Assembly (NCBI GenBank): GCA_951804945.1
Contig: OX638152.1
Location: 40,238,001-40,302,000 of the forward strand
Length of the DNA: 64,000 nucleotides
Reading direction: 5' to 3'
DNA from: Podarcis cretensis
Taxonomy: Eukaryota
The notes under the pieces were generated by a model. That model did no database searches. It was given only the letters and a program-made list of their open reading frames with translations, and was not told the origin of the DNA. A program made the position numbers and the translations under genes. Shown piece after piece: positions 5,451 through 64,000 of this stretch (within the stretch, counting starts at the first letter, position 1; each line of letters starts with the position of its first letter).

Positions 5451-5835
5451 AAGATGCGGGTGGCGCTGTGGTCTAATCCTCTTGGGCTTGCCGATCAGAA
5501 GGTCGGTGGTTCGAATCCCCGCAGCGGAGTGAGCTCCCATTGCTCGGTCCCAGCTCCTGCCAACCTAGCAGTTTGAAAGCACGCCAAAAAGTCCAAGTAG
5601 ATTAATAGGTACCGCTCCGGTGGGGAGGTAAATGGCATTTCCGTGCACTGCTCTGATGACAGTGTTCCGTTGTGCCAGAAGCGGCTTAGTCATGCTGGCC
5701 ATGTGACTCAGAAAAACTGTCTGAGGAGCAGACAAACGCCAGTTCCCTTGGCCTCTAAAGTGAGATGAGCGCTGCAACCCCAGAGTCGGTCATGACTGGA
5801 CTTAACTGTCAGGGGTCCCTTTACCTTTACCTTTA
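5451..5835 (+). mobile_element. Sauria SINE (Squam1), full length, older subfamily
   Basis: tRNA-like head GGTGGCGCTGTGG, B box GGTTCGAATCC, (ACCTTT)n tail. Confidence 0.92.
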
Positions 5836-5991: not shown

Positions 5992-8419
5992 TACTTAAAT
6001 TCCAGTCCTCATGTAGAATAACTGCTGATTAAACACTCCTCTAGCTGTTTTTAATCAAATTTGTTTTCAATGCAGCTTTTTAAACCTTTTCTTATATGAG
6101 GTCCCTTTCATCTTCCCTTTGTAAGTTTTATATTTGGATTCATGTAAGTCTGTAAAGAATGTATGAGTTTGCAGAATGTACCACACTTGTCTACATGCTT
6201 ACTTCTAGAAGCAGCTTATACGAATGGAAGTGTTCCACAGAGGGATTTTTTCTCACACACACTTTATTAAAATCCCATTATATTGTACATTTCCCTGCAC
6301 ACTTAGAAAGCAAGTAATTGACAAGGATTCCCTTTCCCCATTTGGCCTTTATGAACTGGCAGGTGAATGTCAGCATCAGTGATGACCTTTAAGAACATTC
6401 TACAATATCATTGTTTCTGACCAGAACAAGTCATAATAAGTTTAACTTCATCCATAAAATAGCAATGAAGCTGTGATGATTCATTTGGGCAAAAGGTGAG
6501 GGGGGAACGGTGAAGTCCATTGTTGTTCCTACTGTATTTCCAGAAATCACTGGTAGTTGGGCTACATACTTGCAACATGATCAGATGAATCGCAATCCTT
6601 CATAAAAGGTGCTTGTATATATTATAGCAGTACAGTAGGTTGTAGTACATGCCTCAAAGATCCATTGTTGAGGAATGCTCCCTTCCACTCATGGCATATG
6701 TAATATCTACAGCCTTTAATGGCAAGGAGGAGAATGATGTTATAAAGCTACATTAGTAGCACAGAAAAAGAGGAATAAATAAATTTAGCAGGCAACGGAT
6801 AATTAGGAAATGGGAAAAGAGGAGGAGAAAACAGACAGAGACTTGAGGGACAGATCTTAATTAAGGGAAGGAAGGTATCAGGGTCAAGTCTGCAGCTTGT
6901 TAGAGCCATTACAGAAGAAGATGGAAAGAATCTGGCAGCAATCCCAGTTAACGTTCAGAAACAGGAGGTTTCTGATTATCAGGAATGCTTGATAATTGCA
7001 GGGCTCTCTCTATGCGAGGCAGTATTTGGTAGCAACTGTTTAAATACCCTAGTAAAAGTATTTATTTATTTTTAGCCTTTGTATGCTGCCCAGTCAACCA
7101 TGTCCTCTTGGGGTTTCACAATTTAAAATCCATAAAATAAATATAATAACAATTCAAAGAATCGGCATAAAACAAGTGTAAATCAGTATAAAACCCATGA
7201 CTAACAGTGCCAGAATATGATTAACAAAAGTGTACCTGTGAGTGATTTTGGTTCTGTGTGTGTGAGCATTTGTGTGCAAGAGAGAAAGATTTTAAACAGA
7301 GAAATGACTTGTGATAGTCACCACTGATACAAGCACTTCAAACTTTGTCCCAGGCAGTTGCTACAGACTATAATACTATAGAAATGCTCTAGTTACCTAT
7401 CTGGAATAGATAGCGTGTGAAGCCAGCTTCAGGCTTGTCTTTTGTTTATGTTCCTGTTTCTTCAAAAATCAAAAGAAACTACAAGATACTTGTCAGCTTT
7501 CTCATTTCAGCTCATGTAACTGTGTCCTGGAATCCATATTATAACATATTTTATCTTGCCACCACACACTACTGAGAAACGTCAATACAAATGATAGAGT
7601 AGAAGACTACCTAACAGCTTCTCTCTATGTGTTGACCCCCATTGCTCCGAAGTCATACTGAAAACATTATCGCCTTTCTATGCCAGGAGGTTTTTCCTAG
7701 TCTCTGTTGCTTTCTCTGAAGATGTATTGTACTGTATAGCCCATATTTCCATTATCAAGGTTGGCAGGTTTGGAGCAGTGTTTCTAAAGGGTTTGTTAAG
7801 AAATTACCCAGAGACTGTTGTGTCTGGTGAAAAAAACAAACCTAGCTGACTGTAGGTTTTGTTACAAAATAAGATAGCATAAAAATAAGCACAAAGCTCA
7901 GTAATGTGGAAAGCAATGTCTTAATAGATGGAGCAACATGGAGTCAGTGGTTAATTGGATTTATTGTTAAAAATTAAAATAAATCCCTGCCCTTTCAAAA
8001 GCCGCATTTATGAAACAGCCTGTGCAGAAGAGATGATGAACACATGGAAACTAGGAGTTGGGCCCTACATTGCCATTTTGCTTCCTTGCCCTCCAAATAT
8101 GTAGAATGCATTCAGACGTGGCATTTATTGCATTAGTTTTATTGGTTATAATGCTAGAGCATCTGTCACAATTTCTAACATTCCTTTGATAATGCAGTGT
8201 TTATTTTTTCTCTTGTTGTTTTGGATGGGTGTAACATTTAAGTTAACTAAATGACTCTTAACGGTTCCCAATTTTTCCTAATTAATTCTTGGTAGGGTTT
8301 TTGGTATCTGACTCTGCTTCCATGTCCTAGCAAAGTAAATTCTTGCACAAGCTGCTGCATATTTGTGTTTAATATACCTTATTATTTAAATTGCATCGTG
8401 TATAATTTTAAAAGGCATA

Positions 8420-8661
8420 CAGTGGTACCTCGGGTTAAGTACTTAATTCGTTCCGGAGGTCTCTTCTTAACCTAAAACTGTTCTTAATCTGAAGCACCAC
8501 TTTAGCTAATGGGGCCTCCTGCTGCCGCCGTGCCTCTGGAGCATGATTTCTGTTCTTATCCTGAAGCAAAGTTTTTTCCCTGAAGCACTATTTCTGGGTT
8601 AGCAGGGTCTGTAACCTGAAGCATATGTAACCTGAAGCATATGTAACCAGAGGTACCACTG
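8420..8661. mobile_element. Tigger/pogo-like MITE
   Basis: TA|CAGTGGTACCTC...GAGGTACCACTG|TA, perfect 12-bp TIR and TA TSD. Confidence 0.92.
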
Positions 8662-8888
8662 TACTTGTTTCCACCTAAAATATTTTCTTAATGATTATTC
8701 TAACCATTTGCCAAAATATTTTCGCTTTCCTACACCTACATCACATATGAAAAAGATATCCCTTTTCCTCACGACAGATACAGCATTTTCCATCCTCCAC
8801 CCAGAGATGCCATTTTAATGCAGTTTTCCTTAAAAATGGTTGCAACTGAAAAGTCAGATCATTCCCTAAAGACTCTCCTCCCTGAAAT

Positions 8889-9642
8889 AGAGGGGAGTGG
8901 TTGTGGGCGGGAGCCTGAACACCGCCCCTAGCAGGGGGCGTAGCCCCCTGCCTCCAGCTCACCTGGCTGGCGCTCACGCCCCCCCGGTGGCCGTCCAACC
9001 AGGTGCCGTGGGGGGGGGGGGGCGCGTGTCCAGCAGCCTTGATGCTGCAGCGTCAGCCTCTCCCTGGCCTCATTTCTCTTCGTCGTCCTGTGCGAGTCAC
9101 CCACCCTCCACTCCCATTGAGTTAGGGCTTAGGTTATTGGCCTTGCTATGGACCTTAGGTTGGTCGCCCCGGTTGCACGGGGGGCCTGGTAGGAGTTTTT
9201 CCATTTGGCATTAGACTTTTGGGTTTTTTCGCCTACCTCGTAGCAATCGTCACAACTTTTGTGGTATTGGTGGGTAGGTTAGGCATTGGAATAATGTGCT
9301 GTGGTGTGTCGAAGTGCTAGGTGTGGCCATCGCCTATGCCTTCAATGTTTAGTGGTATTCCGTTAAAGGAATCTGGCGGTCGTGTATTCTGTCCAATGCC
9401 TGCTTGGCGGGAGGCCATGGCACGACCCTCGGTGACAGCAGGGGTGAGCCTATAGTTGGATTAGCATCAACAGGTGATGAACCCCTGGTGAATAAACCCA
9501 CTTGTTTCGCAATCCAATGCCTAAGCCAATACCTTTTCATTGCTGTAATCAATAAAGTTGTGGCCTTTTCTAGCCCATTAACTTTATATCACGTGTCCCT
9601 GTGTCTTCTTTTCACGTCGCGGTGGTCGGGTCCTCGAACCAC
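8889..9642 (+). mobile_element. Young GC-rich retroelement terminal repeat (LTR-like; Gypsy vs Ngaro/DIRS unresolved)
   Basis: Sharp GC/CpG-rich block in AT-rich DNA; AATAAAGTTGTGGCC poly(A) signal at 9551 with GU-rich downstream element; AAAT on both sides; diverged homolog at 32680-33260. Confidence 0.7.
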
Positions 9643-9695
9643 AAATTTCCAGATTTCCATTCTCATTTCTTTTGCATGTCTATGTTCCACTTCAA

Positions 9696-32679: not shown

Positions 32680-33260
32680 TGGCTATAGCTAAGGTGAAAT
32701 GAACAAACTCAAGCTGGCAACAATCTGGGCTAAAAATGGCCACAACTTCATTGATTCCAGGGATAGGTGGATTTTGACTTAGGCATTGGTTATATATCTG
32801 ATGTAGCCTCCTGCCAGAGGGCTGAAATTTTTTGACAGGGTTGTTCCAAGGAGTATGGCCTCTGCAAGACACCAAGCTACTGAGGTGGCCATGCTAGGCC
32901 ACTGCTGGAAGCTCTACGGCCCATCTGCTCCACATTTGGCTTCTGGACAGAGACTTCCACCAAGACCCCTATAACAGGGTATCTTGAATACGCTGCTTAT
33001 TCAGATCTGGGTGATGCACCACTTCACCCAAAAGTTTGATGACTAGGATTCCACCCAATACCTTTAGTGCCAAAAGTTGTGATTGGCCCGTTTGAATTCA
33101 GGATTCGGGTGGGCAGTCCTGCCCTGTAGCACAGCTGGTTGGAGAGATTATCAGCAGCCAGGTAAGACTGTGTGGCCCAGCTGCCAGGAACTGTGGCCAA
33201 TCCATGAGGGGCTACAACAGCTGCCCACCCAAGAGAGGGGATAAGTGGCCATTATTGACT
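32680..33260 (-). mobile_element. Older homolog of the 8889-9642 terminal-repeat element
   Basis: Shares, in the same order on the minus strand, GTAGCCCC, ACCTGGCTG, TCCAACCAG, CACAACTTTT, CCAATGCCTAAG and AAGTTGTGGCC...TAGCCCA. Confidence 0.7.
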
Positions 33261-44475: not shown

Positions 44476-44845
44476 AAAAGGTAAAGGTACCCCTGCCCGT
44501 ACGGGCCAGTCTTGACAGACTCTGGGGTTGTGCGCCCATCTCACTTAAGAGGCCAGGGGCCAGCGCTGTCCGGAGACACTTCCGGGTCACGTGGCCAGCG
44601 TGACATCGCTGCTCTGGCCAGAGCCAGAGCCAGAGCCAGAGCCGCACACGGAAACGCCGTTTACCTTCCCGCTGGTAAGCGGTCCCTATTTATCTACTTG
44701 CACCCGGAGGTGCTTTCGAACTGCTAGGTTGGCAGGCGCTGGGACCGAGCAGCGGGAGCGCACCCCGCCGCAGGGATTCGAACCGCCGACCTTTCGATCG
44801 GCAAGCCCTAGGCGCTGAGGCTTTAACCCACAGCGCCACCTGCGT
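44476..44845 (-). mobile_element. Sauria SINE (Squam1), young subfamily
   Basis: Near-identical reverse complement of 63115-63477; intact CpGs; B box; (ACCTTT)n tail; about 40-bp TSD. Confidence 0.96.
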
Positions 44846-52810: not shown

Positions 52811-53062
52811 CAGTGGTACCTTGGTTTAAGAACAGTTTAGTTTATGAACAACTTGTATTAAGAACGCTGCAAACCCCGAAGTAGGTAATTTGGTTTGTGA
52901 ACTTTTCCATGGAATAAGAACATGTTTCACTTCCTGTTGAGTGTGTTCCATTTGTAAATTGAGTCCCCTGCTGCTATGGGAAAGCACGCCTTGGTTTAAG
53001 AATGCTTTGGTTTAAGAATGGACTTCCGGAACAGATTAAGTTCGTAAACCAAGGTATCACTG
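52811..53062. mobile_element. Tigger/pogo-like MITE
   Basis: TA|CAGTGGTACCTTGGTTTA...TAAACCAAGGTATCACTG|TA. Confidence 0.9.
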
Positions 53063-55003
53063 TATATCCTAAGGGCACTTTGAGGAAAGTGGAGGAGGAA
53101 CAGGGAAGAGATGGGCCTTTATAGGGACACACTGTGCCAAAAAACTACATGCCAACTACATATAATGTTATATACATGGTTTAATGTTCTGTGAGTCTTG
53201 TTTTTATTTGTGGATCAGTCAGGACTGGGAATACAACACACATGGAGGAGAGTTTTGGGGTTGTTGTGATTGTTAGTGTTCTACCACTTCCTCTGATACT
53301 GGACTCTCCACATGGAAGAGATGTCACTACTGGTGGCAATGGGAATTTCCTTCTTGTACCAAATAGCAGTTCTGTGTGAAGGAGGATTCCCTTTGGGACA
53401 CCAGCATAGGAGGAAAAGGTTAAACCCCTCCCCATGCACCACAGTGCTGATCCTGACTAGGTTCATCAGCAGCTGCTATTTAAAGTATTAAAAAAATTAC
53501 TACATATTAAATCACTTGTTTAACATCACATGTAGTTTGACCCTCAGAATGAGAAGCTGAAGACAGCATTTTCTCTAGAATGAGACAGAGCCCAGTTTTC
53601 TGCAAGACTCCAAGGTATCATCATGACTAACACAGAGCATCCATGCATGTCTTTTGGGGATAGTAACTCTAACCCCCCAAATTAAAGTGCTTCTCTGAAA
53701 GCTTGAGATAAAATTAATCGTGTAGTTTAAACACATCAGTTTTTCATATAAAAGGGACATTGTGGATGTGCGTAAGGGAGAACATCAGTAGATAAATAGC
53801 GTTGTCTTTTGTTTTGAAGGTAGAACAGTTCACATCATATCAGAAAGCTTTATAATGAATATAAATTAGAAGCAAACTCTGTTTGCATGAGGCACATTTG
53901 TCTTCAAATAATCTGGTTATTTCTGGTTAGCTAATCAAATGGTATGATATTTTGAATATCTGCACGGTTCTAAATTAGAGGATTCTAAATGAGTTCTGTC
54001 AGATTTTGCAAGATTAATAATTTTCAGAATTAACCATGTGTCTGTGACATTATGCAGCTTTTAATTATCATCTCATTCCATGTGTGATGAACTGAAATAT
54101 ATGATTCTACAGAAGATTGTACTATGAGATGATTATGTGAAGGAATTAGATTCTATTTTCTCACTCAGGCTTAAAGTGACCACTTCTAAAATGAAAGGAA
54201 GTGCTTAAGAGAATGCTATCAGTGGTTTTTGTTTTTTAAAGAGATGTTCTTATGTCTTGGAGAAGTCCAGGACTTCTGTTGAGGCCCATGGCTTATAGCA
54301 GTTAAGCAGCATGAAAAACAGTATTGCTTGAGTGGATACTTCAACACGTGGGAGCCAGGATGAAAGGGATAACAGATGTTAGGAAGATAAGTGGTCAAGA
54401 AACTAAGCTAAGGCCAGTTCCAAGAGAGGGCTCTGAGCAGGCAAGAATGACAGTGTCACTGAAACAAAGAAGCAGGGGAAGTTTTAGGAAACTTATTGAG
54501 AAAGGCAGAAAGAAGCAGGAAGGGGGTAAGAGGCTGCATCTGAGTTGAAGACAGGATGTGCTTTGTGACATCAGAAGAGCCCTGCTTGATCAGACCAGAC
54601 GTCTACCCATTGCAGAATGCTATTTCCTACAGGGGTCAACCTGTGTCATTGTGAATCCATAAGCAGAACATGAATGCAATAGTACTCTCCTGTCCATGGT
54701 CCCCAGCAACTGGTATTCAGAAACAGAGTGCTTCTCACACTGGAGATAATCTGTCCATCATGATAGTAGTCACTGATACTCTTACCCTGTATGAATTTGT
54801 CTAATCCTCTTTTAAAGCAGTCAAAATTGGTTGCCATCACTACATCTTGTAGTAGCAAATTCCATAGTTTGTTTGTGTTCTCTGTGAAGCAGTACTTCCT
54901 TTTGTCTGTCCCGAATCTCCAAATATTCAGCTTCATCAGTTTACTCTCTATTATTAGAAAGGAATAAAAGCATCTCACTCCGCCCATTTCTTCCATACAG
55001 TGC

Positions 55004-56850: not shown

Positions 56851-57002
56851 TTTCAATATGTTTTCCTCCTCTTATCTGGCCAGCTATCAATCTACTGTTA
56901 AAGAACATAGTTTCTGAGGGCAAGGTTCTTGCTGCTTACGGACACTGCTTTGGACAAGCAGTTCTGACTCTTAGCATTAGGCTGCAATTTTGATTTTAAC
57001 TA

Positions 57003-57691
57003 CAGTGGTACCTTTGTTCTCAAACTTAATCCATTCCAGAAGTCTGTTCCAAAACCAAAGCGTTCCAAAACCAAGGCGTGCTTTCTCATAGAAAGTAATG
57101 CAAAACGGATTAATCCGTTCCAGACTTTTAAAAACAACCCCTAAAACAGCAATTTAACATGAATTTTACTATCTAATGAGACCACCGAACCATAAAATGA
57201 AAGCCATAATCAATGTACTGTACTATAAAATAAATAAAACAGTATTGTAGATGACAAAAATTAAAAAAAAAATATTACCTGCACCATTGATAGTCGTTGT
57301 TTGGATGGGGGGGGGGCTTTTATCCATTTCCGCAGTCACACAGTCAATTAATCAATCAATCAATCAATAGCTGAACTGGGATCCACAGTCACAAAAACAA
57401 ATCAACTGAAAAAGCCTCAAAACAAAAAATGCAAAATAAATAGCAAAAACAAAAGCACCAAATATAGGCTCCAAATATCACCTCAGAACACTGCAATCGG
57501 AAACAGAAGGCTTGAATTACAATGGGGGGGGGCACAAATTAGCAATGCAACAGGAAACACAGGGGGACTCAAAATGGAGCATGTTCAGTTTCTGAAAAAA
57601 GTTCAGAAACTGGAACACCTACTTCCGGTTTTGCAGTGTTCAGGTTCCAAGTTGTTCGTGAACTAATTGTTCGAAAACTGAGGTACCACTG
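57003..57691. mobile_element. Tigger/pogo-like non-autonomous element, 689 bp
   Basis: TA|CAGTGGTACCT...AGGTACCACTG|TA. Confidence 0.9.
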
Positions 57692-63114: not shown

Positions 63115-63477
63115 GGGACGCAGGTGGCGCTGTGGGTTAAAGCCTCAGCGCCTAGGACTTGCCGATCGAAAGGTCGGCGGTTCGAATCCCTGCGGCGGGG
63201 TGCGCTCCCGCTGCTCGGTCCCAGCGCCTGCCAACCTAGCAGTTCGAAAGCACCTCCGGGTGCAAGTAGATAAATAGGGACCGCTTACCAGCGGGAAGGT
63301 AAATGGCGTTTCCGTGTGCGGCTCTGGCTCGCCAGATGCAGCTTTGTCACGCTGGCCACGTGACCCGGAAGTGTCTCTGGACAGCGCTGGCCCCTGGCCT
63401 CTTGAGTGAGATGGGCGCACAACCCCAGAGTCTGTCAAGACTGGCCCGTACGGGCAGGGGTACCTTTACCTTTACCT
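63115..63477 (+). mobile_element. Sauria SINE (Squam1), young full-length copy
   Basis: GGGACGCAGGTGGCGCTGTGG head, GGTTCGAATCC B box, (ACCTTT)n tail, 14-bp TSD TTATGTTTTATTAC. Confidence 0.97.
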
Positions 63478-64000
63478 TTATGTTTTATTACAAAGAGAAA
63501 TAATTCTGTTATTGGGCAGAATATTTCTTAGTCCGCTACAACTTATTATGCTTCTCCTTTCTAAAAGGAGTGAAATAAGTTGAATAATAAACCATTATCC
63601 AGTGCCAAAGGATGACCCACCAGACCTTCCCATTTGGCCCACAAGGCCATTTCAGGGAAACCACATCCATCATGATGTCAGGTGTGTGGCAGCTAAGGGC
63701 AGGGATTCAATGGAACAATTGGGAAATTGAAATGGGCTCCCAGTTGTGCCTTTGATGGAGGAAGGTGCACTGCAAACCACTCATCAGCTGATGGGCAGTA
63801 GGAGTGTGCCTTCTCCTCCAATCAAAGTGCTGCCCTTTGAAGCTGCTCCAGCCTGTTCCATTCAACCACTGAAATTTTACTCCTTAAGAAAACTTGTTGT
63901 CTGGTCTGTAGGTGCAGCTTCCAGACTTTATTTCAAATAAATAGATACAACATTGACATGCCCAAAGTTTGTGCCCTCCTGCTTTGGTGAGAATTCAAAG

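Follow-up and report, generated by a model that had tools for sequence, protein, structure and literature searches.

The stretch 8868-9644 of the window, i.e., of the whole 64,000 nucleotides of Podarcis cretensis DNA analysed here, is a solo A-spacer-B unit of a Ngaro tyrosine-recombinase retrotransposon. Judged from sequence and predicted folds, the 3' end of the Ngaro transcript probably forms a conserved RNA domain, in which an outer stem, P1, would hold the poly(A) tail by an ENE-like U-rich loop and protect the RNA from deadenylation (we would put the probability of this docking role at about 0.55). The window copy itself is a non-coding solo unit; it carries the module passively. The features are compiled in Table 1.

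Table 1. Features of the solo Ngaro unit and of a second Ngaro copy (positions within the window)
Feature	Position	Strand	Remarks
Solo A-spacer-B Ngaro unit	8868-9644	+	777 bp, AA at each end, no target-site duplication
Split direct repeat A (= A1 and A2 of full elements)	8868-9099	+	
Spacer	9100-9276	+	single-copy in full elements, only before B2
C-rich tract, A/spacer boundary	9100-9115	+	one run interrupted in window copy
Upstream multibranch domain	9143-9246	+	closed by 9143-9150 / 9239-9246; two covarying hairpins plus ENE-like arm
ENE-like hairpin	9188-9237	+	lower stem 9188-9193 / 9232-9237; U5 9196-9200 facing U6 9224-9229
P1 5' arm, outer stem	9249-9259	+	spacer-specific
P2 5' arm, middle stem (partner 9526-9533)	9263-9270	+	covaries between clades; register slips in window copy
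Split direct repeat B (B1 = B2 in full elements)	9277-9644	+	
P3 5' arm, 12-bp stem	9279-9290	+	coincides with 5' boundary of repeat B
Enclosed hairpins 9316-9339, 9357-9372, 9378-9427, 9439-9487	9316-9487	+	
3' arms of P3 (9513-9524) and P2 (9526-9533)	9513-9533	+	
AATAAA (9551-9556) overlapping P1 3' arm (9554-9564)	9551-9564	+	invariant in 14/14 aligned representatives
Predicted cleavage region, conserved CA 9576-9577	9576-9610	+	CA 19-22 nt past hexamer; RNA depth in a related species level by ~9610
Decayed copy of older Ngaro clade	32690-33082	-	outer stem as in window unit; spacer upstream deleted

The first-pass annotation had left it to further work whether the autonomous parent uses an integrase or a tyrosine recombinase. 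Full copies with frames for reverse transcriptase (RT) and tyrosine recombinase (YR) identify it as a tyrosine-recombinase element. An extra upstream copy of 9277-9644 was present at 2 of 30 loci, with the end of an ORF just before it and a tyrosine-recombinase frame further upstream. The layout was read from 60 loci fetched around recombinase matches. Several of them show the order A1-ORFs-B1-A2-spacer-B2, e.g., L071, which belongs to the subfamily of the window, L114 and L119-L121; many stop at B1. One complete relative, L119, contains gag-like, RVT_1, Phage_integrase and weak GDSL-hydrolase frames, the profile matches being E 1.7e-13 for RVT_1 and E 4.1e-6 for Phage_integrase, at cut-off. 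Below the cut-off remain a YR fragment of the window's own subfamily (E 0.0019) and a Lipase_GDSL_2 match after the YR (E 0.0017); a methyltransferase was not matched in the six ORFs scanned. The putative hydrolase frame, ORF4, has an in-frame tandem expansion of 93 bp with variable copy number, as in L031 (4804-5643) and in other copies of the window subfamily.

The repeat ends at 8868 and 9644 are sharp, and the flanks lack a duplication. The insertion junction holds one AA, and an AA precedes 20 of the 21 solos in which the 5' end could be located (it was not located in 6 of 27). Other types of elements were considered and rejected. For an LTR retrotransposon or the LTR of an endogenous retrovirus, TG...CA ends, a target-site duplication and a DDE integrase are missing. 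A DIRS1-like element does not fit, as the repeats are direct, not inverted, and the termini have no match in the stems, which lie inside the unit. A Helitron2/Helentron reading of the termini was dropped because RT, YR and split direct repeats were found. A metagenome scan for relatives in other hosts yielded 0 matches.

Solo units dominate. A genome search yielded 2615 candidates, the best 40 of which are 98-100% identical over the query. Exact-pattern counts in the genome amount to 584 spacers, 60 B1-A2 junctions and 256 B1 starts, which leaves about 520 solos versus 60 full 3' ends; likewise, when 30 spacer loci were picked in genome order, 27 proved to be solos. The mirror image is also seen: A-ORFs-B forms that lack A2-spacer-B2 number about 200 by exact patterns, more than the 60 junction-bearing elements. 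The second Ngaro copy of the window, at 32690-33082 on the minus strand, is decayed, with some 370 bp deleted upstream of P1, and belongs to a clade with 655 candidates. Members of this older clade, which are 73-80% identical to that copy, keep P1 and the P3 core and lengthen P3 by pairs of their own.

Two further kinds of repeat occur in the window. A short element with TACAGTGGTACC-type inverted ends is found at 1936-2155, 8416-8663, 52974-53064 and 57001-57091; it is likely a non-autonomous DNA transposon. Another short interspersed repeat is seen at 5481-5835, 44477-44845 and 63118-63480; two of its copies are 97-99% alike, inverted and 18 kb apart.

The starting point was the observation of nested inverted pairs around the poly(A) signal. 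They are real: CACAACTTT at 9251 faces AAAGTTGTG at 9554, GGTATTGG at 9263 faces CCAATACC at 9526, and TTAGGCATTGGA at 9279 faces TCCAATGCCTAA at 9513; the four inner hairpins and the AATAAA at 9551 were likewise found. (A second AATAAA, at 9491, is not conserved.) The segment 9251-9562 folds with -112 kcal/mol, z being -3.14, and none of 100 shuffles was as good. Of 5000 dinucleotide shuffles, 12 contained a perfect inverted repeat of at least 12 bp and 8 contained four of at least 8 bp; of 205 window tiles, 1 and 6 did so, respectively. In the window copy, the ensemble probabilities of P1 and of the 12-bp stem P3 are mostly 0.5-1.0. Some details had to be corrected. The outer pair does overlap AATAAA, but it covers only the last three A, and the stem really comprises 11 bp including a U-G pair (9249-9259 / 9554-9564). 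The letters of the middle pair, P2, are in place, but its ensemble probability in the window copy is just 0.01, because a slipped register wins. For the first three enclosed hairpins, other families show counterparts that have changed in a compensatory manner; hairpin 9439-9487, the fourth, is family-specific. The minus strand also scores low (z -4.2), and z alone therefore cannot settle the strand.

Diverged families were gathered by recombinase and hydrolase searches, and representatives were kept below 96% identity. The fold recurs in 14 family representatives with a mean column identity of 64%, and all nine minimum-energy folds inspected show the same nesting. Across the nine families tested z ranges from -2.8 to -7.4, while equal-length ORF4 controls yield -3.6 to +0.1. 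The alignment used for covariation has 14 rows, L154 and L163 having been left out for length; 90% of its cells pair, compared to 27-48% in slid controls. Eight of 45 pairs have changed on both sides, a figure reached by 3 of 500 shuffles in a control that ignores relatedness. Inner helices covary, but P1 (10/10 pairs) and the P3 core (11/11) are invariant and hence without covariation; they may be sites recognised by their sequence. The twelfth P3 pair takes three forms, U-A, A-U and C-G. P2 is kept with a different sequence in each clade and is misaligned in the 14-row alignment (69% paired). The enclosed hairpins keep their shape and vary in number and length. In one of seven extended folds (L169) the probability of P1 drops to about 0.05; P2 and P3 without P1 would already bring the ends close. 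Consistent with plus-strand RNA, P1 has a U-G pair that never varies, the spacer helix has undergone a G-U-preserving change, and UUCG and GCAA loops occur. G-U outnumbers A-C at helix ends by 50 to 24, an excess that is modest after allowing for base composition. Overall, we consider it highly probable that a plus-strand RNA structure is under selection.

Could the complementarity be accidental, or a feature of the DNA without any role in RNA, such as a DIRS-type complementary region or Helitron2-type termini? The low minus-strand z may be taken in favour of this idea, as may the whole-unit fold, in which the 5' part of the solo pairs imperfectly with its 3' end. Yet the stems sit inside the unit and lack complementarity to its ends, the parent is equipped with RT, YR and direct repeats, and compensatory and G-U-preserving changes are accompanied by sense transcription. 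We therefore regard this possibility as close to negligible; in particular, the stems are not the DIRS-type complementary region that had been named as the finding to fear.

The invariance of P1 and P3 deserves a second thought. Invariant sequence on both arms of both stems would suit sequence-specific recognition, and enclosed hairpins that maintain shape at variable number and length would fit as well. The domain might then serve the Gag or RT of the element as a signal for protein binding, packaging or dimerisation, and the proximity of the ENE-like loop would be incidental. This leaves the fixed spacing of loop to P1 and of signal to CA unexplained, and we consider it very unlikely.

The spacing in question is striking in its regularity. 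The U-rich loop is present in all 16 representatives, with 3-5 U on its 5' side (just 3 U in 2 of the 16); in the window copy, the lower stem has a probability of 0.94-0.98. The older clade swaps a U-A pair of this lower stem to A-U: A is found in 13 of 13 copies with the 5' arm and the U partner in 11 of 12 copies with both arms, as counted by eye. The distance from the ENE-like loop to P1 is 12-14 nt and that from the hexamer to CA 19-22 nt, each in 15 of 15 representatives. The domain enclosed between P1 and the hexamer varies from 292 to 382 nt. It had been proposed that the stem places the tail beside the U-rich loop. What stands is that, within a conserved domain on the transcribed strand, P1 fixes the distance between the 3' end and the ENE-like loop at 12-14 nt; the docking of the tail is what we infer, and the fixed geometry of loop to P1 and hexamer to CA is its main support. 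A double-domain ENE was considered and rejected, since the second (upper) U-rich loop is not conserved and is missing in the L115 and L154 types. An Rfam search returned no ENE family, its four weak and unrelated matches all being below the gathering score.

A few observations around the loop are worth recording. Four C3 runs with linkers of 1-2 nt open the spacer in 10 of 16 representatives (L115, L116, L119, L145, L146, L154, L158, L163, L169, L179). This tract lies at the A boundary as mapped; on the minus strand it reads as a G-quadruplex-type or polypurine tract directly before TG. The first four bases of the P1 arm (9249-9252) could pair with 9139-9142 and lengthen the closing helix of the upstream domain; this pairing is kept in 14/14, with an A-U to G-U change, and is possibly a switch that operates before the 3' end is made. 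In the L119 clade a genomic A-rich tract, 20-40 nt past AATAAA, follows a conserved GCC. In several families, 8 nt of this tract are the complement of the 3' U strand in the ENE-like loop, which recalls the A-rich tract of MALAT1.

RNA-seq reads were available from a related species, not from the window's own. In both bulk runs the reads come from the sense strand, in the single-cell runs from both strands. Reads that join B1 to A2 number 13 and 2 in the two bulk runs. In X24, a sense depth of about 80 drops to 22-27 in the first 55 nt past the hexamer and then stays level across the junction; in X23 it falls from about 30 to 16, a drop largely explained by diverged families. Among the rows listed, no poly(A) junction or loose end was seen (72 and 25 more rows are not included).

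The preferred reading, tail protection by the ENE-like loop, can be put as a sequence of steps. The transcript would read through the identical signal in B1 and be cleaved about 20-55 nt past AAUAAA in B2. P3 and P2 would close the domain of 290-380 nt, and P1 would pair the strand beside the signal with a stretch that lies 12-14 nt away from the ENE-like loop. The poly(A) tail may finally form U-A-U triples at the U-rich loop and thereby shield the RNA from deadenylation. The U-rich loop and the P1 5' arm are found only before B2; for the arm this is so because it is spacer-specific.

The first-pass annotation had also considered that the outer stem might occlude the poly(A) signal, as the HIV-1 polyA hairpin does. 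Such masking by P1 is not supported: B2, which the element has to use, is the only place where the stem forms, and opening AAUAAA is no costlier at B1 at equilibrium. A local hairpin of the HIV type masking AAUAAA in both repeats was rejected too, the pairing being long-range, covering half the signal and involving different helices at B1 and B2. Nor does the spacer arm pair backwards with the B1 signal to complete its masking; the probability is 0 in five of six families and 0.25 in one.

A broader version is that folds decide the choice of the poly(A) site: AAUAAA would be masked in part in either repeat, at B1 to a greater extent or at an earlier time, and spacer elements would rescue B2. 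At B1, the AAU half of the signal is indeed covered by a 12-13-bp helix that the end of ORF4 forms; L071, L115, L169 and L171 differ in it by compensatory changes, which are apparently also present in the old clade. Opening a hexamer that is just emerging takes 2.9-3.5 kcal/mol at B1 versus 0-0.2 at B2 in four of seven families. The RNA reads through B1, and HIV provides a precedent, as far as the source describes it (PMC2645353). The L119/L146/L154 clade, however, lacks a stable helix at the B1 signal (0.1-1.5 kcal/mol); six nt later, the cost at B2 is about equal to or above that at B1 in six of seven families; at equilibrium B2 is costlier than B1 in 16 of 17 copies; and P1 forms only where the signal has to be used. 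Site choice by such folds is, in our opinion, improbable as the explanation of the domain. HIV-like control may apply to B1 in some clades, though this is not the role of the outer stem. At B1 only, a conserved hairpin just past the ORF4 stop makes a three-way junction between P2 and P3 (e.g., L098 6499-6517).

Repeat B has a boundary that is hard to overlook. B1 and B2 were compared in 41 full copies; 6 of 47 had been skipped for missing anchors, and 10 more had no recognisable B2 end. From 9299 to 9623, the two repeats agree at subfamily-diagnostic non-CpG sites, with at most two discordant copies at any site, and private alleles are common to B1 and B2 as far 5' as 9293. Recurrent differences upstream of the signal are confined to CpG sites, plus one site in 2 copies. 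The agreement suggests that in each cycle both repeats derive from one template. Identity ends at 9276/9277, where the P3 5' arm begins (it starts 2 nt inside the boundary), and at about the same point in other clades.

These data invite a different role for P3, that of a reverse-transcription signal. The 3' region would fold back, be cut after 9524 and prime the minus strand at the spacer/B boundary, or P3 would be the site of the final strand transfer; B2 would never be copied, and both daughter B repeats would stem from B1. The agreement of B1 and B2 and the end of identity at the P3 arm are what one would then expect. The primer of DIRS-1 is given as unknown in the part of the literature at hand (PMC7192593), and self-priming is described for Tf1-type elements (PMC4600332). 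Yet published Ngaro models, as far as the source sets them out, already expect near-identical repeats at insertion (PMC6681497), and the boundary could be a mere end of homology: it drifts by 2-6 nt between clades, and in 1 of 41 copies B1-type bases extend 3-4 nt beyond it on the 5' side. In Tf1, priming is by the 5' end of the RNA, not by an internal 3' arm. The RNA-seq of the related species lacks a depth step at 9524, the predicted fold-back cut, and switch points could not be mapped with so few recombinant copies. The agreement of the repeats would follow from fold-back priming or strand transfer at P3, but also from homogenisation up to the end of homology. We consider priming by P3 a tentative and rather unlikely proposal. 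The combination, in which Ngaro would prime its own reverse transcription via the fold-back P3, with the P3 5' arm defining repeat B, inside an RNA module that shields the poly(A) tail by an ENE triplex, is an unlikely one, too. A tRNA-Gly primer site was also considered: the P3 core matches the 7-bp acceptor stem of the host's tRNA-Gly(GCC) genes, but three of four bases facing the tRNA 3' end mismatch, and the match is likely due to chance. ARAGORN detected no tRNA in the solo unit.

Ngaro elements are widespread, yet the ending of their RNA, the escape from an identical internal poly(A) signal and the priming are poorly described. The conserved architecture of about 450 nt offers exact nucleotides for all three: RNA ending, avoidance of B1 and priming. 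If the preferred reading is correct, ENE-type tail protection extends to a vertebrate tyrosine-recombinase retrotransposon, and a case is added in which a long-range stem delivers the tail. If P3 acts as a fold-back primer, it would be the missing primer of split-direct-repeat tyrosine-recombinase retrotransposons. Several hundred solos also spread a poly(A) signal together with a candidate stabilising element across the host genome.

How does the element compare with known ones? With Ngaro-like YR elements of vertebrates, e.g., Xenopus DIRS-53_XT, as described in the part of the source available, it shares the order A1-ORFs-B1-A2-B2, gag-like, RT and YR ORFs and a putative SGNH-type ORF (10.1101/2021.08.05.455354). 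In contrast to described vertebrate Ngaro elements, it has a B repeat of 370-460 bp plus a structured spacer of 180 bp. By title and the start of abstracts, we found no description of RNA structure, ENE or poly(A) geometry for Ngaro repeats; an earlier mention in key older papers or supplements is possible. Isolated AB repeats are known from the Cafeteria Ngaro (PMC8547959) and as SIRE of Trypanosoma VIPER (PMC6681497), to the extent that these sources cover them. The isolated A-spacer-B units seen here likewise come from split-direct-repeat elements; here, however, there are about nine solos to each junction-bearing copy, and A-ORFs-B forms occur commonly as well.

The short RNA-RNA duplex beside a repeat boundary resembles that of Tf1-type self-priming, as outlined in the source (PMC4600332). 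Unlike the Tf1 primer, the candidate here lies within the RNA, as a 3' arm that precedes the poly(A) signal by 27-38 nt, and its cleavage is putative. With the HIV-1 polyA hairpin, according to the portion of the source available (PMC2645353), the element shares two repeats with identical signals, of which the first is read through, and a signal that is partly base-paired. It differs in that the pairing is long-range, covers half the hexamer, is not the same in the two repeats and is not kept at B1 in all clades.

ENEs stabilise transposon RNA in other systems, as far as the sources report (PMC12501189, PMC7583470). The available part of a review's ENE listing comprises plants, fungi, a slime mould and stickleback retroviruses; Ngaro is absent from it (PMC7583470, PMC13541005, PMC12501189). 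Like the ENEs of KSHV PAN and Arabidopsis Evade and the dENE of rice TWIFB1, in the form these sources present them, the Ngaro motif is a U-rich internal loop between short helices, upstream of a retroelement poly(A) signal (PMC7583470, PMC13541005, PMC12501189). Unlike known ENEs, the loop lies 330-420 nt upstream and is reached via a long-range stem; it has 3-5 U on the 5' side and no conserved double domain, and the triplex it would form is putative.
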